Assembly: GCA_003508005.1 (NCBI GenBank) | Contig: DNUE01000016.1 | Location: 24,746 to 88,745, forward strand | Direction: 5' to 3' | DNA from: Desulfobulbaceae bacterium | Lineage (GTDB): Bacteria; Desulfobacterota; Desulfobulbia; Desulfobulbales; Desulfobulbaceae | Length of the DNA: 64,000 bases | Part shown: positions 1-64,000 of the stretch, in pieces | How positions within the stretch are numbered: the first letter of the stretch is position 1 | Layout: each line of letters opens with the position of its first letter | The notes under the pieces: generated by a model | What the model was told of the DNA's origin: nothing | The model's input: the letters and a program-made list of their open reading frames with translations, nothing else | Databases searched by the model: none | Translations under genes and position numbers: made by a program

Positions 1-1249
1 GGCAAACGTCATGGATAACCTGATCCAGGGCTCGCTGCATGAAGGTTGAGTAGATGGCGACCACCGGCCGCAGGCCTTCCAGGGCCTGGCCGGCGGCAAA
101 AGTGACCGCATGCTGTTCCGCGATGCCCACATCGAAAAACCGTTCCGGGAACTCCTGGCTGAAAGGGATCAGGCCGGTGCCGGCGGTCATCGCGGCGGTG
201 ATGGCGGTAAGCCGGTCGTTTTCCCGGCCAAGGGTGCACATGGTTCGGCCAAAGATCTCGGTGTACGAGGCCGTCCCCTTGGAGGACAGCGGGGCGCCCG
301 TGGCAATGTCGAAGGGGCCCACTCCGTGATAATCGCCGGGGTTTCGTTCCGCCGGCCCGTATCCTTTGCCCTTGGTGGTCAGGACGTGGATGAGCACCGG
401 TCCGTGCCGGTTGTCGCGGACATTTTGCAGGGTCTCGATGAGCGATTCAAGCTTGTGGCCAGGCAGGGGGCCGATGTATTCGAATTTGAGGGCCTCGAAG
501 AGCATGCCAGGGGTAAAGAAGCCTTTAAGGCTTTCCTCGCTTTTGCGCAGGACGTTCAGGATATTTTCGCCCACGGAAGAGAGCGATTTGAGGCGTTCCT
601 CGACCTGCTTCCGCAGGTGGCTCATCGTCTTGCCGGTCAGTTTCTTGCTGAGGAAGCTGGACATGGCGCCCACGTTAGGCGAGATGGACATTTCGTTGTC
701 ATTGAGGATGACGATCAGATCCTTGTCCAGGTGACCGGCATGGTTCAGGCCCTCGAAGGCCAGGCCGGCGGTCATGGAACCGTCGCCAATCACCGCGATC
801 ACCCGGCTGTGGTCCTTGGTCAGCTCCTTGGCGGTGGCTATGCCCAGGCCGTAGGAAATCGAGGTGGAACTGTGGCCGGTTTCCACGACGTCGAAGGGGC
901 TCTCCGTACGTTTGGGAAAACCGCTGATTCCTTTGTACTGGCGCAGGGTGTGGAATTTGTCGCGACGGCCGGTAAGCAGCTTGTGGGCGTAGGACTGGTG
1001 GCCGACGTCCCAGATCAGCTTGTCCTTGGGGGTATCGAATACGTAGTGCAGCGCAATGGTCAGTTCCACAACGCCGAGGCTTGGTGCCAGATGGCCGCCG
1101 GTGGCCGCGACGGTGCGGATGATTTTGTGACGGATCTCCGCGGCAAGGCGGTCCAGGGATTCCGGCGGCAGACGCCGCAGATCAGCCGGGGAGTTGATGG
1201 AGTCCAGCAGCTCGGTCTGCCGGTCCTGCAGGGCATTGAGCATGAGCAT
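1..1249 (-). CDS. dxs: 1-deoxy-D-xylulose-5-phosphate synthase, N-terminal ~416 codons (3' end runs off the window)
   Basis: Absent from the ORF track because it has no in-window stop. My translation from ATG 1249 gives [36 protein letters not shown]. Near position 118 downward it gives [38 protein letters not shown], a typical DXS sequence. Sits in the canonical xseB-ispA-dxs order. Confidence 0.9.
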
Positions 1250-4441: not shown

Positions 4442-6859
4442 ATGACGGACTCCCCGATGTATGAAAAGCTCGATCTCTTCTACCTGGGGCGCGAGATGGA
4501 TCCCGCCACCGGCCAGACCATCTCTCTACCGTTCCTCTACAAGCACAGCCACATGACAACCCATGCCGCCATCATCGGTATGACCGGCAGCGGCAAAACC
4601 GGGCTGGGGATCTGTCTACTCGAGGAAGCGGCCATTGACCGGCTGCCGGCCATTGTCATTGACCCCAAGGGCGACATGGGCAATCTACTCCTGACCTTTC
4701 CCGATTTGCAACCAGAGGATTTTTTGCCTTGGGTTGACCAGGCACGGGCGGAGCAGAAAGGGGTAAGCAGGGAGGAACTTGCCCTGGAGACGGCAACGAC
4801 TTGGGAGAAGGGGCTTAAGAGCTGGGACCAGGACCGTGAGCGCATCGTCCGCCTGAAGGCAAATGCTGATTTTTCCCTGTTCACCCCGGGGAGCGAAGCC
4901 GGCCGGCCGGTTTCAGTGCTGGCGAGCCTGGAGGCGCCGGCCCCGCAACTCCTGGAGGACACCGCCACCGCGGCCAGTTTGGTAAATTCCACAGTTTCTT
5001 CCATTCTCGGCCTGGTGGGCATGCATGCTGACCCGCTGACCAGCAGGGAACACATATTGCTGTCTGCTATCATCCTGCAGCAGTGGCGGCAGCAGGCAGC
5101 CATCACCCTCGAGTCCCTGGTTGCCAGCGTGGTCACCCCGCCTTTTGCGCAGATCGGGGTCCTGCCCCTGGAGAGCTTCTATCCACAGAACAAGAGGATG
5201 GAACTGGCCATGCAGCTTAACAACATCCTCGCCAGTCCAGGGTTTGCCGCCTGGACCAAGGGCGAGCCCCTGCGCATCGACAGTCTTCTTTATACCGCGG
5301 AAGGCCGGCCCCGTATCTCCATCTTTTCCATAGCGCACCTGAGCGAGTCGGAACGGATGTTTTTCGTGACCATGCTTCTCGGCCGGCTGATCAGCTGGAT
5401 GCGGCGGCAGCCGGGCAGCAGCAGCCTGCGCTGCCTGCTGTACATGGATGAGATCTTCGGCTATTTCCCGCCGCTCGGCAACCCCCCCGCCAAGGCGCCA
5501 ATGCTGCTCCTGCTGAAGCAGGCCCGGGCCTACGGTCTCGGTATTGTCCTGGCTACCCAGAATCCCGTGGACCTCGATTACAAGGGGCTGGCCAATATCG
5601 GCACCTGGTTCATCGGCCGGCTGCAGACCAGGCAGGACCAGGACCGGGTCATGACAGGGTTGGCCGGCGGGAGCAACGCTCTGGCGGAAGAAGACATCCG
5701 GTTGCTCCTGGCAGGGCTTCGCGGCCGGACCTTCCTCGTGCATTCCGCCCACCTTGACCGCCCTGTGCTTTTTGAAACGCGCTGGGTCATGTCCTACCTG
5801 AAGGGTCCCATCGCCTTGAACGAAACAGCCAGTCTGGCCGCTTTTCCGCAGGACGCTACCGCGACGCCGGCTGCTGTGGCAGCGTCCGCGGATGCGCAGA
5901 CCGCTGCTGCACCTGGTGCTGGCGGTTTTTTGCTGACGCCGCCCCTGCTGCCTGCAGCTGTGCCGCAAAAATTTATGCCGTCGCCTCTTCCGGTGCAAGG
6001 GGTGCGCTATCAGCCCTTTTTTGCCGGTTCGGCCACCGTCAGGCTATTCAGCCAGGCCAGGGGTATTGATCAACTGTCCCCGGTCCGGCTCAAAATTCCC
6101 CTCGCCGGAACAAGTGAAGCTGCGGATTGGGCCGTTGCCGTTGATAATACGGTTTTTCCGGAATCGGTCACAACCATGCCGCCGGCCGGGGCGCAATATA
6201 ATTCCCTGCCCGCATGGATCATGGCGTTGAAAAACTTGCGCGGCCAGGAAAAGAGCCTTGCCGATTACCTGTATCAGACCAGGACCATGACCCTCCAACG
6301 GGTAGCCGCCCTCAAGCTCGAATCTGGGCCGGAGGAGACGGAGAGCGAGTTTCAGCAGCGGGTTGCTGACCGTCTGCGGTCCCTGAAAGAGGCGGAGGTG
6401 GAGAAAGTCAGGCAGCTCTACCAGGGCAGGGAGCAGGCTATAGTTCGCCGGCTGCAGAATGCACAGGCCCGGATGGAGAAGGAAAAGAGTGATGTGGCCA
6501 GCCGGGGCGTGGATACGGCCCTTTCCTTCGGGGTCGCGGTGCTTGGCGCCTTCTTTGGCCGCAAGGCGCTCTCAGTGACAACTGCCTCGCGTTCGGCCCA
6601 GGGGGTGCGCAGTGCGGGTCGGCTCATGAAGGAGAAGGGCGACGCACGCAGGGCAGTAGAGGAGGTTGCGCGGATCGAGGAAGAGATCGCCGCCCTGACA
6701 GCGGAACTGGAGGAAAAGATCGCGTCGGTGACCGGCCGCTTCGATCCATCCTTCTATCCGGTGGAAAAGGTGACAATCACCCCCCGCCGCAGCGATATCG
6801 CCGAGGTCCGGGTCTGGCTGCAGTGGGAGCCGGTGCTGGACCTGCCGGGACGGCAATGA
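4442..6859 (+). CDS. HerA/FtsK-like (DUF87/DUF853-type) P-loop NTPase with a long C-terminal coiled-coil/hydrophobic extension
   Basis: Walker A GMTGSGKTG followed by AIVIDPKGD. Walker B LLYMDEIFGYF. GLGIVLATQNPVDLD. The C-terminus is rich in E/R/K heptad-like sequence with the hydrophobic stretch ALSFGVAVLGAFFG. A good RBS (AGGAGA) is present. Confidence 0.7.
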   Translation: MTDSPMYEKLDLFYLGREMDPATGQTISLPFLYKHSHMTTHAAIIGMTGSGKTGLGICLLEEAAIDRLPAIVIDPKGDMGNLLLTFPDLQPEDFLPWVDQARAEQKGVSREELALETATTWEKGLKSWDQDRERIVRLKANADFSLFTPGSEAGRPVSVLASLEAPAPQLLEDTATAASLVNSTVSSILGLVGMHADPLTSREHILLSAIILQQWRQQAAITLESLVASVVTPPFAQIGVLPLESFYPQNKRMELAMQLNNILASPGFAAWTKGEPLRIDSLLYTAEGRPRISIFSIAHLSESERMFFVTMLLGRLISWMRRQPGSSSLRCLLYMDEIFGYFPPLGNPPAKAPMLLLLKQARAYGLGIVLATQNPVDLDYKGLANIGTWFIGRLQTRQDQDRVMTGLAGGSNALAEEDIRLLLAGLRGRTFLVHSAHLDRPVLFETRWVMSYLKGPIALNETASLAAFPQDATATPAAVAASADAQTAAAPGAGGFLLTPPLLPAAVPQKFMPSPLPVQGVRYQPFFAGSATVRLFSQARGIDQLSPVRLKIPLAGTSEAADWAVAVDNTVFPESVTTMPPAGAQYNSLPAWIMALKNLRGQEKSLADYLYQTRTMTLQRVAALKLESGPEETESEFQQRVADRLRSLKEAEVEKVRQLYQGREQAIVRRLQNAQARMEKEKSDVASRGVDTALSFGVAVLGAFFGRKALSVTTASRSAQGVRSAGRLMKEKGDARRAVEEVARIEEEIAALTAELEEKIASVTGRFDPSFYPVEKVTITPRRSDIAEVRVWLQWEPVLDLPGRQ

Positions 6860-6868
6860 CCGGGAAGC

Positions 6869-8350
6869 TCAGCCAAGGAAGGGCATCAGGCCCTCTTTGC
6901 TCAGCTCGTTTGTGAACTTGACGTGCACCGAGTAGTCACTGAGGACAGGGTCATATATCTGCACCCCGGTAACCGTGCCCCGCAGGACCATATCTTTGCC
7001 GCCGCTGGTCGGGATGCACGCCTTGATGCTCCGGTTGAGAAGCAGGCGAATGTTTGCTTTCTTGGTGATCCTGATGAAGAAGGAAAGGCCGCCCTGGGAA
7101 ATATCGGTTAACTCGCCCTTGAAGCTGCTCAGGATGCGATCCTTGTCGTCTACGATCTGCAGCTGGATTTTCAATTCAACCTTGAATCGTTCATGGACCC
7201 TGCGGTCCAAGCCCTTTTTTTTCATCGCAGCATAGAAATCGCTGCAGCGGTTGTAATAGTCGATCAGCTTGGATTCAATTCCCGGAAACCGCTGCTCCAA
7301 CCGGGTCAGATATTCACGCTTGAGGACCGAAATGGAGGTCTGTTGCTGTGCGGTCAGGGACAGTGTCCATACCGATGCGTTGAAGAAATTCTCTCCGATA
7401 ATCTCACCGTTCCCCAAATCTTTCAGGAAAAGCTTCTTCTCTCCGTCCGTATAGGACGCCATGACGCTGCCGTGGTTGATGAAGAACAGCTCGTCATTTT
7501 GTGCTCCTTGGGTGACTATGGTTTCTTCAGGCCGGTAGCTGCGTATTTCCATCTCATGGTAGAGGGAATTGAATTCTTCGGTGGAAAGGACGGTGAGGAG
7601 CTTGGCCCAGACGGCAAGATGGTCCTTGGTGATGGACCCGGATTTTTCCTCCTCGATAATGTCGCCGGATTGAATGATCTCCATCAGCGCCAGGGGATCA
7701 ATCTCATAGATCCGTTCCCGCAGGCGTTCGGCATTGAAGAAATCTTTTTTTCTTGCGCAGGCGACCACCAGGTCAAAGAGCTGTTTCTTGGCCTCGTCCC
7801 TGTTGCCCTTGGCAGCAAGCTGGAATATCTGTTCCTCGCGCAGGGAAAGAAGGTCCTTGGGTTTCTGCGTCGGGTTCTCAGATTTTTCCAAGACGATTTG
7901 CCGGGTCTGTGCCATCTGCACTGCCTTGGCCGCCGAGGCGTGCAGCTGTTCCGGGTAAACCGGATTGCCGATTATGTTCTGCAGGGCGGGAACGGTCTTG
8001 CCCAGGATCTCCCATTGCTGAACCTGGGCCAATCTGGAAGCATTGGCGATGAGGCAGGCAGAGGCTGCCTCCCGGATCTCCTTGTCTTTGCTGCGCGAGC
8101 CGAGCTGGAGTTGGTCAAAAAGCTTCTCCACGACCGCCCTTTTCTGATTCGCGAAGAGGCGGACGATGGCTTCAGGCAAGGGTGCGGTGACCCTCTGATC
8201 GAGCAGGACCCTTTGTTCACCGCGCAAGAGACGGTTCAAGGCATCCTGGAGGCTGAAAACCTGTTGCTGGGTCAATGGAGCACCTTTGGCGAATATGTAT
8301 TTCAGGATAACTCTTTGTCGTGACGTAGCATTGAACGGGTGGCTTGTCAA
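6869..8350 (-). CDS. cyclic-nucleotide-binding domain plus C-terminal PilZ domain protein
   Basis: The cNMP-binding beta-barrel is suggested by ELFFINHGSVMASYTDGEKKLFLKDLGNGEIIGE. The PilZ signature is RRVHERF...DISQGGLSF. Confidence 0.75.
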   Translation of the reverse strand: MTSHPFNATSRQRVILKYIFAKGAPLTQQQVFSLQDALNRLLRGEQRVLLDQRVTAPLPEAIVRLFANQKRAVVEKLFDQLQLGSRSKDKEIREAASACLIANASRLAQVQQWEILGKTVPALQNIIGNPVYPEQLHASAAKAVQMAQTRQIVLEKSENPTQKPKDLLSLREEQIFQLAAKGNRDEAKKQLFDLVVACARKKDFFNAERLRERIYEIDPLALMEIIQSGDIIEEEKSGSITKDHLAVWAKLLTVLSTEEFNSLYHEMEIRSYRPEETIVTQGAQNDELFFINHGSVMASYTDGEKKLFLKDLGNGEIIGENFFNASVWTLSLTAQQQTSISVLKREYLTRLEQRFPGIESKLIDYYNRCSDFYAAMKKKGLDRRVHERFKVELKIQLQIVDDKDRILSSFKGELTDISQGGLSFFIRITKKANIRLLLNRSIKACIPTSGGKDMVLRGTVTGVQIYDPVLSDYSVHVKFTNELSKEGLMPFLG

Positions 8351-11511: not shown

Positions 11512-11940
11512 CTAGATATCAAGATTTTCAGGTTGCTGCGCCTGGTGCGGATGCTCGCTACCCGTGTAAATTTTCAGTTTCTTCAGCTGTTTTCGGCCGA
11601 TCTTGTTTTTGGGAAGCATTCCCCGCACCGCCATTCTGATGAGTTCTTCAGGTTTGTTAGTGAGTACATCTGAGGCCGTCTGTTCCCTGATACCGCCCAT
11701 GAATCCGGAATGGCGATAATATTTTTTCTGATCCCACTTGTTCCCGGTGAGATGGATCTTTTCGGCATTGACCACGACAATGAAATCGCCGTTATCCTGG
11801 AAATTGCAGAAGGTCGGTTTGTGCTTGCCACGCAACCGCCTTGCTATTTCCGAGGCAAAACGGCCAAGGGTCTTGCCATCGGCATCCGCTACATACCATT
11901 TGCGGTCAATTTCATTCACCGGAGTATAAAACGTTTTCAT
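11512..11940 (-). CDS. rplM: 50S ribosomal protein L13
   Basis: [42 protein letters not shown] is a typical L13, in the conserved rplM-rpsI pair. Confidence 0.95.
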
Positions 11941-56281: not shown

Positions 56282-56594
56282 CGGGCCGGCAGCGAAAGCC
56301 TTTTTCGGGGAACATCTCCCTTTGCCTGGTGGTGGCTCTCGGGAACATAGGCTGAAATGTTTGAGGCTCAAGGGGAAGATAAATCCGATCATGCTGAAGG
56401 ACGTATCTATTATTTGTTTCCCCGAACAAATCAATGTCCAGGATCGCTAAATGCCTCAGCTTACAGTATATAGCCTTTGGCCTTCAGTCTGAATAGCCTG
56501 AGCAGTTTACGCTTTTTGTGTTCAAGAAACTGGTTGTCCATGGTAAGTATAAAGGCTGTTGATTTTTTTTCGGGCATTTGCTTTCCAGGATTCC

Positions 56595-59500
56595 ATGACT
56601 GACGAACACGAACGGAACATTCCTGCGGGCTATTTATCTTTTTCCCCCTTGGAGCAGGCCCTTCTCCTCCTTGTTTCGGTAATATACGAACCCGTTGCCA
56701 CCCCTTTCCTTTTCTCCTGCATGGCAAAGGCCGATTTTGGGACGCTGGGGACTTTCAGGCCAACCCGGGAGGAGCTGGCTTCGGCCCTCTACCGACTGCG
56801 GGAGAAACATTTTCTGAACGAAAATAACCGCATTCCGCAGCCGTTGGTTGAGTACATCACCAGACAGGCCGTTCGCAGCGGAATATTTTGCCAGCTTTCA
56901 GCCTTGGTCGAAAAGATGGCCCCGGTTTCCTATCAGGACGGCAAATGGTCAACCCGCTGCCGGAGGGCCATGCGGCAGTTCCGTATCGGGATCTACAACG
57001 GGGATTTCGAGAAGATCGACGAGGCCAACGCCTTTCTTGATGAACACTGCCGTTCTCGTCTTGCGGGAAAGGCCCCTGCCGTGCTTGTCGCGGCCGAGTC
57101 GTTTGACCCTCAGTGGTTCGGTGCCCTGGCCGGATCCCTGCAGTTCTATCTGCTGGAGCAGGTTATTCGCTACAGCATGAACCAGTTGCAGCATTACCCC
57201 CCGGTTCTCTCCTATCTTGCGGACGAGTCTGCCCTGACCATCGGTCCTGACGAACAGGTGCCGTTCCACCGCCTTCTGGCCGGGTATTATCTGCTGGAAG
57301 GCCGTTTTACTGATCTGGAGGCTTTGCATGCGCGGCATCCGGACTCGTTCCATGCATCCGGCTTCAGCGGCACCCTTGCATTTCTGCGCGGCGACACCGA
57401 ACAGGCGCATTTTCTTTTTAGAGAGGATTTGCGCCAGTTGCATGCGTATTTCGGAGACCGTCCGGCTTTTTTCTTCGGCTTGCCGGGACTGTTCTGCGTC
57501 TTCGCCTTGCTGGACAGGAACCGTATAGAGGACCGGCTTCTTATCAAACAGGATATTGCCATCGCCCTGGCCCGGTACCAGGGATGTCCTGAAGAGGTTC
57601 CCTATCTGTTCATCGACGCCTTGGTCAGCTCCCTGGACAGTTCACTGCCGGACATGAAGACGCTCTCCGAACGGCTTCAGGAGGACGAGGCGGGTCTGAC
57701 AAGGCTTATTGCCGTACTCTGCCTCTGCTGGATGGGAGTCGAAATCCCCGACGAGTTCAGAAAGTCCCTGGCCTCTGTCTACGAAAGGGCTGCCGCCAAT
57801 GGTTTTGCCTGGCTGGCCATGGAGGCGGCGATCCTTCTTGGCGAACTGGAATATGAAGGGCAGGGGGCAGAATATGGCCGACTGGGCGAAGAGTACCGAT
57901 CCCGTCTGGGCTGCCGGTCGATTGTCAGCATAATCGCCACAGAGCGGTCCTGGAAGCATAGCCTGCAGGAGCTGATCACCCTGACCAGCGCGGTCAGGAG
58001 TCAGAAGCAGACCACCCGTTTGGTGTGGCTGGTACAGTACGCCAAGGGACGGCTCTATTTTCAGCCCAGGGAACAGAAACGTAAGGCGGACGGCACATGG
58101 AGCAAGGGGCGGTCCATGGCCCTCAGCCGGCTTATTGAGCAGCGGGATCTCGATTTCCTCACCACCCAGGACCGGCGCATCTGTGCGGCACTGCATTCTC
58201 TCGCGGAACCGCCGAGCAAGGGGAGCGGGTACGGTTTTGATCCGGAGATCGCTCTGCCGGCGCTGATCGGTCACCCCTTGGTGTTTCTGGAAAAATCACC
58301 GCAGACCCCCGTGGAGATCATTGCCGGAGAACCGGAGCTGCTGGTTGAGCAGCAGGGTGACTACCTGTTCATTCATTTCACCCAGGATATCGGGGAAGGC
58401 AAGGTGATAGTCTGGCAAGAAACCCTGACTCGGTTCAAGGTGATCCGGATCGATGATAATCATCGCCGCATTGCCGGGATAACCGGGCGCAAGGGGCTGC
58501 GGGTCCCTATCTCCGCGAGCAGCCAGGTGCTTGACGCCATCGGCAGGATCGGTTCGTTTATGACCGTCCATTCCTCGGTGGGGGTTGATATCGGCAGCCA
58601 GAGCGTTGACTCCGTGGAGGCCGATTCCACCATCCACCTGCACTTCATCCCCTACGGCAGCGGCTTCCGGCTTGAGATGTTTGTCAAGCCTTTTGTCGAC
58701 GGCGGCCCTTATCTGAAACCGGGCGTTGGCGTTGCCAATCTGCTGGCCGATGTCAACGGCCGGCGCCTGCAGACCCGCCGCAACTTGAGGCTGGAAGAGG
58801 AAAAGGCGAGAGAGATAGAGGAGAGCTGCCCTATCCTGGACCTGGCTATTGACCTGGAAGAGGGGAATGTGCGGGAATGGCACCTGCTCGACCCGGAGGA
58901 GTGTCTCCAGGCGCTGCTGGAGCTGGAGGAGATTCGGGACAAGGTGGTGCTGGAGTGGCCCGAAGGCGGCAGATTGTCCGTGCGCCGTCAGGCCGGCGTC
59001 AACCAGCTGAACCTCAATATCCGCACCAGCCAGCAGGACTGGTTCGGAATCAGCGGGCGGCTTGCGATCGATCAGGATGAGGTCATCGAGCTGAAGACCC
59101 TGCTGGACAGCGTAAAGTATTCCCGCAGCCGCTTCATCCCCATCGGTGACAGCCAATTTTTGGCCCTGACCCAGGAGTTCCGCAAACGACTGGACGAGCT
59201 GGTTCTCCTTGCCGAAAGCAGAGAGGACGGAGAGGGCGACGAGGTCTTCATCCATCCCCTGGCTGCACTCGCTCTGGACGGCCTGACCCGGGAAGCGAAC
59301 ACCAAGGCCGATGAGGGCTGGAAGCGGCGTCTGCGCCTGGTTCAGGAATCGCAGGCCCTGGCCCCCGAGGTACCCTCCACCCTGCAGGCCGAACTGCGCG
59401 ATTACCAGTACGAGGGTTTCGTCTGGATGGCGCGCTTGGCACATCTCGGCGTCGGCGCCTGCCTGGCCGACGACATGGGTCTTGGCAAGACCCTGCAGTC

Positions 59501-60761
59501 CCTGGCAGTGATCCTGTACCTGGCCAAGCAGGGGCCGACGCTGGTGGTCGCGCCGACCTCGGTGTGCATGAACTGGGAGCAGGAGATCATCCGTTTCGCA
59601 CCTACCCTCAACATCCAACTTCTCAGCGGGACCGGAAGAAAGGACCTGGTCGCCTCACTGAACAAGTTTGATATCCTGATCACCAGCTACACCTTGCTGC
59701 AGCAGGAAATCAAGCTGCTGGAGTCGGTCGAGTGGCAGTGCATTGTCCTGGACGAGGCACAGGCCATCAAAAATGCCGGCACCAAGCGCTCCCGGGCGGC
59801 TATGCGGCTCAAAGGCAGGTTTCGCCTGCTGACCACCGGAACGCCCATCGAGAACCATCTGGGTGAGCTGTGGAACCTGTTCCGCTTTATCAACCCAGGT
59901 CTGCTCGGCTCCTTCAAGCAGTTCAACGCCCGTTTCGGCATTCCCATTGAAAAGCATCAGGACCGGGATGCTCGTCGCAAACTGAAAAAGATCATCCGCC
60001 CCTTTATGCTGCGCCGGATCAAGGCCCAGGTTCTGGACGAGCTGCCGCCCCGCACCGAGGTATCCCTGCGGGTGGAGATGAAGCCCGAGGAAATGCATTT
60101 TTACGAGGCCCTGCGCCAGCAGGCCCTGGAAAACATCGAAGGAAGCATGGAAAAAACCGGCCGCCATCTGCAGATCCTGGCGGAGATCATGAAACTGCGC
60201 CGGGCCTGCTGCCACCCCAGGCTGATCGTGCCGGACATCGACATTTCCGCGGCCAAGATGGAGGTTTTTGCCGCGCTGGTGGATGAACTGCTGGCAAGCA
60301 GGCACAAGGCCCTGGTTTTCAGCCAGTTCACCGGCCACCTTTCCTTGATCAGGAAATATCTCGACGAAAAAGGGATCGTCTATAAATACCTGGACGGCAC
60401 CACGCCGACCAGGGAGCGGCAGCGCCAGGTGGAAACCTTCCAGGAAGGTGAAGGCGATCTGTTCCTGATCAGCCTGAAAGCAGGTGGGCTCGGACTCAAC
60501 CTGACCGCTGCCGATTATGTCATCCACATGGACCCCTGGTGGAATCCTGCGGTCGAGGACCAGGCAGCGGACCGGGCGCACCGGATTGGCCAGAAACGGC
60601 CTGTTACGGTCTACCGGCTGGTGACTGCCAATACCATCGAAGAAAAAATAGTCAAGCTGCACCAGGAGAAACGGGATCTGGCCAATTCGCTGCTCGAGGG
60701 CACCGATGTCAGCGCTCGGATCAGTGCCGACGAGCTGCTGGAACTGATCCGGGAAAAATGA
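56595..60761 (+). CDS. SNF2-family helicase/ATPase with an N-terminal region of about 900 aa and unknown function
   Basis: C-terminal SNF2_N plus helicase_C: LADDMGLGKT (motif I), VLDEAQAIKN (DEAQ box), TGTPIEN, and WWNPAVEDQAADRAHRIGQ (motif VI). Confidence 0.85.
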   Translation: MTDEHERNIPAGYLSFSPLEQALLLLVSVIYEPVATPFLFSCMAKADFGTLGTFRPTREELASALYRLREKHFLNENNRIPQPLVEYITRQAVRSGIFCQLSALVEKMAPVSYQDGKWSTRCRRAMRQFRIGIYNGDFEKIDEANAFLDEHCRSRLAGKAPAVLVAAESFDPQWFGALAGSLQFYLLEQVIRYSMNQLQHYPPVLSYLADESALTIGPDEQVPFHRLLAGYYLLEGRFTDLEALHARHPDSFHASGFSGTLAFLRGDTEQAHFLFREDLRQLHAYFGDRPAFFFGLPGLFCVFALLDRNRIEDRLLIKQDIAIALARYQGCPEEVPYLFIDALVSSLDSSLPDMKTLSERLQEDEAGLTRLIAVLCLCWMGVEIPDEFRKSLASVYERAAANGFAWLAMEAAILLGELEYEGQGAEYGRLGEEYRSRLGCRSIVSIIATERSWKHSLQELITLTSAVRSQKQTTRLVWLVQYAKGRLYFQPREQKRKADGTWSKGRSMALSRLIEQRDLDFLTTQDRRICAALHSLAEPPSKGSGYGFDPEIALPALIGHPLVFLEKSPQTPVEIIAGEPELLVEQQGDYLFIHFTQDIGEGKVIVWQETLTRFKVIRIDDNHRRIAGITGRKGLRVPISASSQVLDAIGRIGSFMTVHSSVGVDIGSQSVDSVEADSTIHLHFIPYGSGFRLEMFVKPFVDGGPYLKPGVGVANLLADVNGRRLQTRRNLRLEEEKAREIEESCPILDLAIDLEEGNVREWHLLDPEECLQALLELEEIRDKVVLEWPEGGRLSVRRQAGVNQLNLNIRTSQQDWFGISGRLAIDQDEVIELKTLLDSVKYSRSRFIPIGDSQFLALTQEFRKRLDELVLLAESREDGEGDEVFIHPLAALALDGLTREANTKADEGWKRRLRLVQESQALAPEVPSTLQAELRDYQYEGFVWMARLAHLGVGACLADDMGLGKTLQSLAVILYLAKQGPTLVVAPTSVCMNWEQEIIRFAPTLNIQLLSGTGRKDLVASLNKFDILITSYTLLQQEIKLLESVEWQCIVLDEAQAIKNAGTKRSRAAMRLKGRFRLLTTGTPIENHLGELWNLFRFINPGLLGSFKQFNARFGIPIEKHQDRDARRKLKKIIRPFMLRRIKAQVLDELPPRTEVSLRVEMKPEEMHFYEALRQQALENIEGSMEKTGRHLQILAEIMKLRRACCHPRLIVPDIDISAAKMEVFAALVDELLASRHKALVFSQFTGHLSLIRKYLDEKGIVYKYLDGTTPTRERQRQVETFQEGEGDLFLISLKAGGLGLNLTAADYVIHMDPWWNPAVEDQAADRAHRIGQKRPVTVYRLVTANTIEEKIVKLHQEKRDLANSLLEGTDVSARISADELLELIREK

Positions 60762-61010
60762 TGGTGTCGCAAAAACTCCCCAACTGAGGTGTCGGAGTCT
60801 ACGCTTACCTGTGCTTCTTCCTTTGTCACTGCGGCGTACAGGGTGTACGCTTCATTCCTCAGGATTTGCGCGCCTTGCATTTGACGGAATCGCAAAAAGG
60901 GCGATGCAGACGCCGGCAATCTAGGTAACTTATTGTATCCATTGTGGCGGATGCTCAATGTATTTATTCTATTACACTTTTATTTCATTGGGGTTTTTTG
61001 CATAGCCATC
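60762..61010 (+). repeat. most complete copy of the modular intergenic repeat family (blocks A-E)
   Basis: Block A is 60762..60784 and block B is 60825..60836. Block C is GGAATCGCAAAAAGGGCGATGCAGACGCCGGC (60886..60917). Block D is GTGGCGGATGCTCA (60944..60957). Block E, TTTTTGCA, lies near 60994..61001. Confidence 0.65.
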
Positions 61011-61074
61011 CCTTTTGTCTTTTAAAGAGGACATAAGAAATATGAGACACCACGGTATTAATTGAGGACGCGAG

Positions 61075-62394
61075 ATGAACATTCGAACGCTGAGTGTGGA
61101 AACAGAGCAGGGGCGAAATTTTCTGCGGGTCCTGCGGGAAAGGTTCAGCTTCGGGGACGGCGGCTGCCGCGAGAGGGTGGCGAATATCCTCGAGGAGGTT
61201 CGTCTCCGGGGCGACGAGGCGGTGGTGGAATACACCCGGAAGTTTGATGCCCCGGCTATGACTGTCGCCGGTATGCGGGTGCTTGATGCGGAAATCGAGG
61301 CGGCGGCAAAGGGAGTGTCTACGGAGCTTTTGGCAACCCTCCGCCTGGCCGTGGAGAGGATCCGGGCCTTTCATGAACGGGAGATGGAGGACTCCTGGTT
61401 CCTGACAAGGGACGACGGCACGGTGACCGGCCGGCTGGTGCGGCCGGTGGACAGCGCCGGCCTTTATGTGCCGGGCGGGCAGAGCGGCTCCACCCCCCTA
61501 GTCTCCTCGGTTTTAATGAACGGCATCCCCGCCCTCATCGCCGGGGTCAAGAGGCGGGTGATGGTCACCCCGCCCGACGACCAGGGAGGGGTCAGCCCGG
61601 CGCTGCTGGTGGCGGCCCGCGAAGTCGGGATAGATGAGATTTATAAAATCGGTTCCGCCTGGGCCATTGCCGCCTTGGCTTACGGCACCGCGACCATCCC
61701 GGCGGTGGACGTGATCGTCGGCCCCGGCAACCAGTACGTGGCCGAGGCCAAGCGCCAGGTCATGGGTCGTGTGCGCATCGATATGATCGCCGGCCCCAGC
61801 GAAGTGCTGATCGTGGCCGACGCACAGGCCAACCCATCATTCATCGCCGCTGACCTGCTGGCCCAGGCCGAGCATGATCCTCAGGCCCTGGCCATCCTCC
61901 TCACCACCAGCGAGGAGATTGCCGCCAGGACCGAGGCGGAACTGGAGTATCAGTTACCGCAGCTGAGCCGCCAGGAGGTGGCCAGCCGGTCGCTTTCCGA
62001 GCGGGGCGCAATCCTGCTGGTCGATTCTTTGGAGCAGGCCATGGAATTGGCGAACGAGATCGCCATCGAGCATCTGGAGCTGCAGGTGCAGGACCCCTGG
62101 CAGTGGCTGCCCAGGGTGCGGCACGCCGGGGCTGTGTTCCTGGGCGGCTTTACCCCGGAGGCGGCCGGCGATTATGTGGCCGGGCCCAATCATGTCCTGC
62201 CCACCATGGGTACGGCCCGCATCGCTTCTGCCCTGGGGGTGGAGACCTTTCTCAAAAAAAGTTCCATCATCTCCTATTCGCGCCAGGCCCTGCTCAGCGA
62301 TGCCGACCATATCCGCCTGCTGGCCAGACTCGAGGGGCTGACCGCCCACGAACGCTCCGTGGCGGTGCGGGTGGAACACGCGGCCAGGTCCTGA
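61075..62394 (+). CDS. hisD: histidinol dehydrogenase
   Basis: [15 protein letters not shown]...AQAEHD...AIEHLEL are HisD motifs. Confidence 0.95.
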
Positions 62395-62401
62395 CCCGTT
62401 C

Positions 62402-63073
62402 ATGCCCGGCACCAGTGAACAGGAGGCGGAGCAACTCCTCCGCCGGGGACTGGAGCTGCTTGGCCTCCCCTTGGCGGACGGTCCGGTGGCGCAGCTGGTG
62501 CGCTACTGCCTGGAGTTGGAGAAGTGGAACCGCAAGGTCAACCTCATCGCCAAAAACACCCCGCTGCCGGAGATTATTGACAAGCATTTTCTTGATTCCC
62601 TGACCTTGGTCCCGATCCTCGACCGGCTGCTGCCCAAGGGCGGCACCTTGCTTGACGTGGGCAGCGGCGCCGGTTTTCCCGGCCTGCCGGTGAAAATTGC
62701 GCGACCCTCCTCCTGGCAAATCACCCTGCTCGAACCACGAGAGCGGCGAGTCATTTTTCTGCGGCATGTCATCAGAACCCTTGCCGTGACGCGGATTGCG
62801 GTGGAGCCTTCCCGCATCGAGGAGGGACGAGTGACAGGAGAATACCAGCTCATCACCGGCCGGGCCGTAGCGGACGTTCCCTCCTTTCTAATCATGGTCG
62901 AGATCCTCGCCACATCGAAGACCTATGTCATCTGTATGCAGGGGGAGGGGGGAAGGCAAGGGCTGGGGCAGGGTGACCGGGTCGGAGCTTTCATCTGTGT
63001 CGGGGTGGAGGAGACCAGGCTGCCGTTCAGCCGGGCGCCGCGTTTCCTCTTGCTGTTTCGCCGGGCGGATTGA
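62402..63073 (+). CDS. rsmG: 16S rRNA (guanine527-N7)-methyltransferase
   Basis: KWNRKVNLIA...HFLDSL...LLDVGSGAGFPGLPVKI is GidB/RsmG-like. Confidence 0.9.
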   Translation: MPGTSEQEAEQLLRRGLELLGLPLADGPVAQLVRYCLELEKWNRKVNLIAKNTPLPEIIDKHFLDSLTLVPILDRLLPKGGTLLDVGSGAGFPGLPVKIARPSSWQITLLEPRERRVIFLRHVIRTLAVTRIAVEPSRIEEGRVTGEYQLITGRAVADVPSFLIMVEILATSKTYVICMQGEGGRQGLGQGDRVGAFICVGVEETRLPFSRAPRFLLLFRRAD

Positions 63074-63093
63074 GTCACTCTATATTCCTGTCC

Positions 63094-63134
63094 ATCAAGG
63101 AGGTGGCTGACCGCCTCCTTGATCACCTTTTTTT
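63094..63134 (+). terminator. rho-independent terminator downstream of rsmG
   Basis: ATCAAGGAGG-10 nt-CCTCCTTGAT (perfect 10-bp stem) followed by CACC and T7. Confidence 0.75.
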
Positions 63135-63219
63135 GATCCATATTGTCCGTATGAATCCCGAATTTTCTGGTTGTTGCAGGACTTGTGCTGTTTTGAGAAA
63201 AGGTGATTTGTTACGTATA

Positions 63220-64000
63220 GTTCCGGGTAAAGGCGCCGGTTACCCGGTGCCCTCCCCACAGACCCGGACGTGATGATTTCCCTCACCCGGTTCCTCGAAA
63301 GACACAGGTTCTACGCCCGTGAATTACCAAACGGGTTGTTCCCCGTTTGGCGCATAACTTTGCTACCCAGTGCATTCTATGGACTTTGCGTTGACATAGT
63401 TTGTGGGCACAGAGTCCCTCCTATCTTTCCTGTCCACAGAGCGTTATGCCCGGCTTCACCTTTCCTGCAGCGGGTCCCTTGAGCCTCGGTTCCCCGCCTT
63501 CCCGGACATCTTTTCCTGTCCACCGGTACTATGATCAGCTAAGACTGCCAAAAGCCCGTCTCAGGTCCGTTCACTCTTCGCTGTCCGTACCTGATACCTT
63601 GCCTGCCCTTCTGCTTTTGTGTTCTTCTGCAAGCTCGCATGAGGGGCGGGGCGCTCTCACCTCATACGCCGGGAATGTATATACGGCATTCCTGACCGTT
63701 ACCTGTGCAAGGAGACAAGTGGCTCTCCCGAGTTCCCACGCTACCCCTGTGAATACATGCCCTGGTCTCAGACCCCGGTGGTGACCGGAACACTTGCCAT
63801 AGCGCATTCCGGCCTGCTGCCTTCCGGCATCGTAAAGCCGTCGGCTTTCACTCCCGGTTGCCCGGAAGCTATCATAAAGACCACGAAGAAAGATTTTTCG
63901 GAGCTCAATACAGAGCCTGCATTCTTGATCCGTCCGGCTCAGGACTCCCGTTACTGGGTTGGCCCTCGGACTTCTCTACTGACCTGTCGGCTTGACTTTG
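63220..64000 (-). ncRNA. candidate large structured RNA; group II intron-like 3' portion (domain III-, V- and VI-like elements), 5' end beyond the window
   Basis: No credible ORF on either strand over about 800 nt, and the minus strand is purine-rich. The domain V-like element at minus 63293..63261 is GAACCGGGU-GAGG-GAAA(U)-CAUC-AC-GUCCGGGUC. The domain VI-like element is GGCACCGG-GUAA-CCGGCGCC with a bulged A 8 nt before ...GGAAC (63220). The canonical AGC triad reads AAC, so the call is tentative. Confidence 0.35.

Follow-up and report, generated by a model that had tools for sequence, protein, structure and literature searches.

The window analysed here is a stretch of 64,000 nt from the Desulfobulbaceae bacterium assembly GCA_003508005.1 (contig DNUE01000016.1, positions 24,746 to 88,745), and the roughly 0.9-kb "empty" spacer that follows rsmG near its end can now be annotated. 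The minus strand of the spacer certainly carries a group II intron that is without its open reading frame (ORF) and is inserted where the exon matches the intron's own exon-binding site 1 (EBS1). It is very probable that this element derives, by deletion of the ORF, from a mobile, IIB-like intron of the type described by Rfam model RF02005, and that it is non-autonomous and likelier a drifting relic than an active intron. The intron RNA occupies 63221–64000 (minus strand; nt 104–883 of 883), as assigned from the RF02005 match, the comparison of copies in other genomes and the register of EBS1. Intron nt 1–103 lie beyond the window (window-equivalent 64001–64103, minus strand) and were read from a 100% identical contig (L001; coordinates 11600–11702). 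An initial annotation, made from the sequence alone, had proposed that the minus strand of 63140–64000 holds a possible group II intron, either degenerate or lacking its ORF; this proved correct for 63221–64000, while 63134–63220 is the 3' exon.

The initial annotation had also suggested a search with Rfam covariance models. All Rfam families were scanned against 60000–64000 using the curated gathering thresholds (49 bits for RF02005 and 40 bits for RF00029), and RF02005 (group-II-D1D4-6) matched the minus strand at 63763–64000 with 75.7 bits, the match being cut by the window end. With the full-length sequence on L001, the score was 92.8 bits (E value 3e-26). RF02005 was the only non-tRNA Rfam family above threshold across the whole window. 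Domains V and VI were matched by RF04357 (63258–63296; 30.6 bits) and by RF00029 (Intron_gpII, domains V–VI; 63221–63295; 30.4 bits), the latter below its threshold. All six domains (D1–D6) are present in canonical order, as judged from RF02005 for D1, from the D5 and D6 matches and from RNAalifold.

The statement that no credible ORF follows rsmG was borne out, as the 127-, 78-, 70- and 67-aa ORFs in 63070–63807 had no Pfam match at E≤0.1. The purine skew reported for the minus strand was likewise found, with a purine content of 58.7% in 63221–64000 that ranks among the top three of 633 segments of 780 nt in the 64 kb, and the GC and AT skews of the plus strand are both negative. The full 883-nt RNA has a minimum free energy z-score of -3.55, and none of 20 shuffled sequences folded equally well.

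Boundaries and domain structure

The intron boundaries were set by families of eight and seven near-identical copies with differing flanks, found in two metagenome-assembled genomes (MAGs), together with the EBS1 register. The copies in these families are identical up to ..(U)CUC|GCGCC, about 70 nt beyond an internal GUGCG. EBS1 (UACGAU; 63829–63834, minus strand) lies in the loop of a D1 hairpin, GCCGAC-GGC UU[UACGAU] GCC-GGAAGG. The exon pairing for which the initial annotation had proposed to look was found to be complete, all six nucleotides forming Watson-Crick pairs with AUCGUA in the 5' exon, directly before UCGCG. In six other introns (L012, L015, L016, L017, L027 and L035), the corresponding loop nucleotides form 6/6 pairs with exons of differing sequence, so that loop and exon covary in a fixed register. 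As intron-binding site 1 (IBS1) of a group II intron directly adjoins the splice site, the intron starts with UCGCG at window-equivalent 64103, 103 nt past the window, and is 883 nt long. The predicted ligation would join ..GGUAUAUCGUA to CUAUACGUAAC.. (..AUCGUA|CUAUACG..), and the target site matching EBS1 reads NNAUCGUA|.

Neither end follows the usual consensus. The 5' boundary GUGYG is replaced by UCGCG here and by UCGUG or UUGCG in relatives, with positions 3–5 (GYG) retained. The 3' end at 63221 reads ..UUUACCCGGAA (..CCCGGAA) and departs from the AY rule; copies in the two MAGs diverge straight after the terminal AA. The adjoining 3' exon (63134–63220, minus strand) is intergenic non-coding DNA with no ORF or Pfam match, and copies in other genomes diverge past ..GGAA.

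Other placements were examined and rejected. The internal GUGCG (window-equivalent 64032) was not retained as the 5' end, as relatives have GUGCU or GUGAU and the identity between copies runs ~70 nt further. A 5' extension of ~57 nt that would contain a pseudoknot and precede a vestigial GUGYG was dropped because its nucleotides pair with positions 363–374 with double covariation and form ordinary D1 basal stems. An EBS1 in the large loop at 63565–63590 (GGUACG/CGUAUC) is probably a chance match, the D1 hairpin loop giving 6/6 pairing at a constant register in seven introns.

A consensus secondary structure was derived using RNAalifold on eight ORF-trimmed relatives, and holds many double-covarying pairs. 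In the numbering used for helices, which counts from the G of GCGCC (+2 gives intron numbering), D1 covers 4–374, D2 375–561, D3 574–630, D4 632–805, D5 809–841 and D6 845–877. D1 extends over 63728–64000 of the window (whole domain, window-equivalent 63728–64098; minus strand, as are all domains) and contains the RF02005 match at 63763–64000. Its basal stems (4–8/370–374 and 14–18/363–367) show double covariation with zero broken cells. The 5' strand CCGAG (intron nt 6–10) pairs locally with CUUGG (nt 24–28) or long-range with CUCGG (nt 372–376), and both partners covary in relatives, so that alternative pairing is possible between these segments (window-equivalent 64076–64098 and window 63728–63732).

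D2 (63541–63727) includes helices 375–378/558–561, 379–387/547–555, 390–395/500–505 and 508–512/537–541, and carries a variable insert of ~100 nt that is absent from some relatives. It is followed by a J2/3 linker (..GCUGAUCAUAG; 63529–63540), which is conserved among relatives and was assigned by position, and by D3 (63472–63528; helices 574–577/604–607, 580–586/593–599 and 608–610/628–630). The string at 63555–63603 that the initial annotation had likened to domain III falls in D2 of this model. D4 (63297–63470) is reduced to a stub without an ORF, with homology to relatives on either side of the lost ORF.

D5 (GAACCGGGUGAGGGAAAUCAUCACGUCCGGGUC; 63261–63293) is 33 nt long and has a lower helix of nine positions and an upper one of 4 bp, together with an AC bulge and a GAAAU loop of 5 nt, in agreement with the fold described initially. 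Its fold, bulge and length fit the roughly 34-nt D5 hairpin of group II introns, but the catalytic triad is AAC opposite G, an A.G mismatch that had also been described correctly, rather than AGC or CGC. D6 (63225–63257) has a GUAA loop and an A x C mismatch private to this copy, and its helix and bulged adenosine are conserved among relatives. The putative branch point is the bulged adenosine 63228, which precedes the 3' end by 7 nt, within the usual 7–8 nt. Both D6 and this adenosine had been recognised in the initial annotation; the 3' end had been placed at 63220 (..AC), one position away from the ..GGAA end found here.

Loss of the maturase gene and condition of the window copy

A BLAST search against plasmids identified a 72% identical match on a plasmid of Desulfosarcina sp. 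BuS5 (GenBank accession number NZ_CP087953.1), overlapping an annotated ltrA gene. The identity spans nt 22–662 and 670–812, counted from the internal GUGCG. Full-length relatives from Desulfobacterales, also ~72% identical, carry a reverse transcriptase (RT)/maturase gene encoding an intron-encoded protein (IEP) of 457–465 aa. The window copy aligns to these relatives in two blocks, one that begins with its first nucleotide and reaches ~13 codons past the start of the IEP ORF, and another that runs from 13 nt past the stop codon to the end. As homology is found on both sides of the ORF, with only ~16 nt between the two blocks and ~1.37 kb of D4 missing, the window copy is a deletion derivative.

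A remnant of the IEP reading frame is located at 63377–63424 (minus strand), where ATA and 14 sense codons are followed by TAG, in alignment with ltrA of BuS5 and L017. The remnant reads ATA GGA GGG ... TAG, compared with ATG GGA GAT ... in relatives, the start codon having changed from ATG to ATA. The lack of an RT ORF noted in the initial annotation was confirmed, as tblastn with the IEP of a relative found no RT/maturase ORF in D4 or elsewhere in the 64-kb window. A second intron copy was likewise not found anywhere in the window.

The BuS5 IEP (457 aa) matches TIGR04416 with 351 bits and includes the Pfam RVT_1 and GIIM maturase domains, but lacks an endonuclease (En) domain. It is roughly equidistant from all solved group II RTs. 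A genome search using this protein identified 25 loci encoding IEPs of 64–99% identity, mostly in Desulfobacterales MAGs, and two MAGs hold the eight and seven near-identical 2.2-kb copies with differing flanks. A 2215-nt contig labelled 'Bradyrhizobium sp. WSM1743' (L011; GenBank accession number NZ_AXAZ01000150.1) is 99.6% identical over its full length to the BuS5 plasmid intron, and is either a contaminant or the product of a very recent transfer.

The six 5' exon nucleotides fully complementary to the intron's own EBS1 are the trace expected from insertion by reverse splicing. The full-length relatives encode an RT+X maturase with no En domain, and ~1.37 kb of this gene has been lost from D4 of the window copy. 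The remaining RNA is predicted to be non-autonomous. To fold, splice or move, it would need both transcription of the minus strand and a cognate maturase provided in trans by a full-length sibling at another place in the genome.

A 28-mer spanning the deletion junction retrieved one further ORF-less copy (L156), from a JGI metagenome. It is 91.9% identical to the window copy and has the same deletion junction, but its neighbouring genes differ. The two copies share ~50 nt of 5' flank, including the hairpin CCGGCA-N9-UGCCGG (L001 11729–11750 and L156 642–663), and a search of the window and the examined loci placed the 22-nt motif of this flank at the two intron loci only. The neighbour on the side of this flank is a putative surface protein gene at both loci, encoding a collagen-like protein in L001 and a beta-helix protein in L156. 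In L156, a sequence upstream of the beta-helix gene (491–564, minus strand) resembles a c-di-GMP-I-GGC riboswitch (57.3 bits; threshold 59).

In the consensus structure, 17 of the 223 pairs in the window copy are non-standard, compared with 11 in L156 and 4–10 in ORF-bearing relatives, and eight pairs are disrupted in the window copy alone, compared with three in L156 alone. The private breaks in the window copy include a G x A in the upper helix of D5 and the A x C in D6. The RF00029 score of the window copy, 30.4 bits, is below those of L017 (39.7), L156 and L042 (both 40.2) and BuS5 (43.5). Suspicion of a decayed relic in the initial annotation is thus supported by more broken pairs than in any relative, but not by the core "defects" it had listed, which are traits of the lineage (see below). 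As the window copy has the most broken pairs, D5 and D6 included, and neither a promoter-like site on the minus strand nor a maturase gene in the 64 kb was found, a drifting relic is modestly favoured over an element that currently splices in dependence on a trans-acting maturase, judging from sequence features.

It is a serious possibility, though somewhat short of probable, that the window copy still functions as a non-autonomous intron. It would then be transcribed, spliced with the maturase of a sibling in trans and perhaps mobilised, with its structure under selection. The six domains are intact and the EBS1-IBS1 pairing is perfect, and the same ORF-less form is present at 92% identity in a second metagenome beside other genes. 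ORF-less forms also recur in the lineage (L042, L078 and the first intron of L142), and there is precedent in a 2015 review for ORF-less introns beside IEP-encoding introns and for trans-splicing by an IEP in a cyanobacterium (PMC4424553). Against this, there are the eight private pair disruptions, including those in D5 and D6, the D5–D6 model score ~10 bits under that of siblings, and the lack of a promoter-like site on the minus strand and of an IEP in 64 kb. In addition, the location is non-coding, so that no host gene would select for splicing, and the ~50 nt of common 5' flank may mean that both copies descend from a single old insertion and do not record two separate mobility events.

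Several observations weigh against a non-autonomous element drifting into decay. Both ORF-less copies keep all domains across ~8% divergence, and fewer changes were found at paired (5.4%) than at unpaired (8.4%) positions, a pattern that would fit ongoing selection on the RNA. However, pair-preserving changes between the two copies were not significantly in excess, as 10 of 21 changed pairs still pair, against a null of 0.39 +/- 0.10. A cognate maturase may be encoded elsewhere in the genome, beyond the 64 kb and the further 1.5 kb covered. Contigs ended inside the intron in four of six independent assemblies (see below), which hints at repeated, sibling copies in the source communities. The labels of D2 and D3, which derive from position and the RNAalifold model, are provisional.

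Recruitment of the ribozyme by the host, for example as a maker of circular or linear RNA like the circularly permuted RNAs, was also considered and appears highly unlikely. The ORF-less form has persisted over ~8% divergence, both times beside surface-protein genes, and ORF-less group II derivatives with new outputs are known (PMC8637638). However, the domain order is canonical and not permuted, only two copies with a common flank were found, and the window copy is gathering changes that break helices. Nor is the position kept in Desulfobulbales relatives with hisD-rsmG synteny. A non-autonomous deletion derivative, more probably relic than active, remains the preferred interpretation.

A search that started from D5 rather than from the RT gene revealed, besides L156, the ORF-less relatives L042, L078 and the first intron of L142. 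L042 (565–2391; Desulfobulbaceae MAG, accession JAUWLT010000066) and L078 (Desulfobacterales HSG2) are ORF-less RF02005 introns with no IEP, each with an insert of 0.9–1.6 kb in domain I. The insert in L042 includes a near-threshold match to RF02003 (D1D4-4) at 786–968, giving an ORF-less arrangement like that of a twintron. On the reverse strand of L142, from an alphaproteobacterial MAG, an ORF-less intron of ~830 nt with AAC triad and UUGCG start forms a tandem pair with a full-length copy (about 5035–5862 and 5946–7976). The full-length copy is located directly downstream, and a frameshift interrupts its IEP. Among the matches listed in the D5-first search, 45 were preceded by 2.6 kb of sequence or more, and in 14 of these a single-query tblastn detected no IEP upstream. 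The rarity of ORF-less introns may therefore be partly a search artefact, and surveys starting from the RT may underestimate how common introns without an ORF or with a divergent IEP are. Intron finders that start from an RT gene or from the GUGYG/AGC/AY consensus would overlook the element described here.

A lineage with a non-canonical core

The AAC triad with its A.G mismatch and the missing GUGYG had been counted against an intron in the initial annotation. Neither objection held. In 26 of 26 relatives, D5 has the form GAACCG...CGG(G/A)UC, with AAC opposite G or A and a 5-nt loop. As these relatives include full-length introns present in multiple copies, AAC is a variant of the lineage and not damage. 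AAC introns for which the 5' end was located all start U(C/U)GYG, with UCGCG or UCGUG in Desulfobacterota and UUGCG in alphaproteobacteria and Alteromonas, whereas AGC relatives start GUGCG, GAGCG or GCGCG. Relatives for which the 3' end could be read have AA or another non-AY terminus. The AAC triad, UCGCG 5' end and ..AA 3' end of the window copy are thus inherited traits of its lineage and do not result from decay.

A D5 pattern allowing A or G at the middle of the triad was searched for in the genomes of 185,579 species, and at least 120 loci were identified. Among the matches listed, AGC.U was found in 78, AGC.A in 26, AAC.G in 11 and AAC.A in seven, and AAC occurred in several phyla. AGC opposite A, a G x A rather than a G.U pair, accounted for 26 of the 122 D5s among the matches listed. 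The hosts of the lineage include Desulfobacterota, Alphaproteobacteria (with Rhizobium and Bradyrhizobium plasmids), Alteromonas, Planctomycetota and others. AAC/UUGCG introns with intact ltrA are carried by plasmids of cultured Alteromonas macleodii, Rhizobium sp. and Bradyrhizobium barranii, and match RF02005 at 125–139 bits.

The IEPs of L007, L012, L014, L017, L023, L237 and L238 have RWADD or RFADD at the RT active site in place of the usual YADD. These motifs were found in the AAC lineage of Desulfobacterota and in its Halomonas and Alteromonas relatives, and FADD has been reported for variety g2 of Toro (PMC3552965).

The presence of seven or eight near-identical copies per genome points to recent retromobility, and the recent mobility of these families suggests that the non-canonical AAC cores are presumably active. 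It is tentatively proposed, at a level a little below even confidence, that the introns form a widespread and currently mobile lineage in which the AAC triad, the U(C/U) start and the non-AY end changed together. No description of an AAC intron lineage was found in text searches of the literature, with Simon et al. 2008 and the Zimmerly database outside their scope. The 2015 review describes an 'AGC (or CGC)' triad and GUGYG...AY ends as the rule for 'the vast majority' of introns (PMC4424553), and the one report of a similar start that these searches found concerns a UUGCG..GU intron of another class (PMC7923331). Should the lineage be undescribed, and should it use the usual two-metal mechanism for splicing, the triad G that is shared with U6 snRNA and regarded as 'invariant' would be replaceable in nature, and the lineage would represent a natural set of compensated active-site variants. 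The location of such introns on plasmids of cultured bacteria makes the catalytic consequences directly testable.

Genomic setting

The rsmG gene ends at 63073 and is followed on the plus strand by an intrinsic terminator (63094–63133), a 13-bp stem at 63094–63123 and then a T-run (L001 10693–10722 and tail), which lies outside the intron. Contigs encoding an identical RsmG protein were looked up and found in six assemblies, and shared 99.9–100% identity with the tail of the window. L001, with 100% identity, reaches 1537 nt past the window end and supplies the missing 103 nt of the intron. In four of the six independent assemblies the contig ends inside the intron, an observation that counts in favour of a working intron and, as noted above, hints at siblings.

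The next gene (L001 11856–13130, plus strand) begins 257 nt beyond the window (window-equivalent 64257 onward). Its 424-aa product contains Gly-X-Y repeats like those of collagen and matches CBM_5_12 weakly, and the gene is preceded by a strong sigma-70-like site with 11 of 12 matches (L001 11772–11801, plus strand). The intron is therefore located on the minus strand of the spacer between rsmG and a gene for a collagen-like surface protein, antisense to both neighbours. A sigma-70-like site facing the intron on the minus strand was not found at this locus.

The structured, non-coding character of the region and the proximity of a plus-strand gene would also fit another large structured non-coding RNA, which the initial annotation had listed as an alternative, or the 5' leader or promoter region of the plus-strand gene, which it had named as a finding that would overturn the intron. 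Either is now hardly credible and is, in our judgement, refuted by the present data. The covariance match is far over threshold and on the minus strand, no other Rfam family was detected, and homology with introns carrying ltrA extends from end to end. Furthermore, the promoter-like site lies beyond the 5' end of the intron, which places the intron outside the transcript and leader of the collagen-like gene.

The host belongs to Desulfobulbales, and its HisD is 72% identical to that of Desulfobulbus MAGs. Related Desulfobulbales genomes keep the hisD-rsmG synteny and lack the intron. An empty insertion site was sought downstream of rsmG in Desulfobulbus and Desulfocapsa relatives, and no homologous spacer was found. 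Upstream of hisD-rsmG, a gene for an SNF2-family helicase (1400 aa) is located at 56559–60761 (plus strand), and dsrC and surA-like genes are found further upstream of it in identical contigs.

Comparison with known group II introns

The window copy is matched by the same D1 model as the En-less RF02005 introns of BuS5 and of Halomonas, S. meliloti, Rhizobium, Bradyrhizobium and Alteromonas plasmids (49–156 bits), and shares with the plasmid introns a 33-nt D5 with a 5-nt loop, D6 and the EBS1 hairpin. In contrast to the window copy, the plasmid introns carry an IEP of 410–465 aa in D4. Not all RF02005 introns have the non-canonical core, as those of Halomonas (L237) and S. meliloti (L241) keep AGC and L237 starts GUGCG, whereas the sub-lineage of the window copy has AAC and UCGYG.

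ORF-deleted class D ribozymes such as the RmInt1 delta-ORF form can be complemented in trans, and the lineage resembles RmInt1 in the En-less IEP. However, assignment to class D, or to class F of the Ni.ha.I1 type, was rejected because the reference introns match RF01999 and RF02003, respectively, while the window copy matches RF02005 only. Class C (IIC) introns are marked by insertion past a terminator stem-loop, a short IBS1 and a CGC triad. The window copy was excluded from this class, as it has a 6-nt IBS1, an AAC triad, a large D1 and no terminator immediately 5' on the intron strand.

The reference introns were taken by their published coordinates (tables in PMC3552965) and scanned with Rfam. 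The class D examples, pBpOF4-01 and Sh.dy.I1, matched RF01999 and have GUGUG or GUGGG starts and AGC.U triads, and the class F intron Ni.ha.I1 matched RF02003 and is canonical, with a start within the GUGCG/GUGUG/GUGGG set and an AGC.U triad. The 3' ends read ..AC in Ni.ha.I1 and Sh.dy.I1 and ..CC in pBpOF4-01. A further resemblance is to groups IIE and IIF, which are IIB-like and small with an En-less IEP and a D5 loop of 5 nt in place of 4 nt (Nagy et al. 2013; PMC3753933). The published IIE and IIF introns are described with GUGYG/AY ends and no triad deviation is mentioned for them, and the window copy differs from that description and from Ni.ha.I1.

Among the closest parallels are the bacterial ORF-less group II introns of Simon et al. 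2008, as summarised in the 2015 review, such as those of a cyanobacterium and C.te.I1 of Clostridium tetani, which likewise have six domains, a D4 stub and no IEP. According to the review, an ORF-less intron in bacteria is nearly always accompanied by related introns that encode an IEP, and trans-splicing by the IEP of a sibling was shown in a cyanobacterium (PMC4424553). Like these introns, the window copy derives from an IEP-bearing lineage and would be expected to depend on a maturase acting in trans. Unlike the known ORF-less introns, it has a deletion that could be mapped to the codon, occupies a non-coding site antisense to its neighbours and has a non-canonical core.

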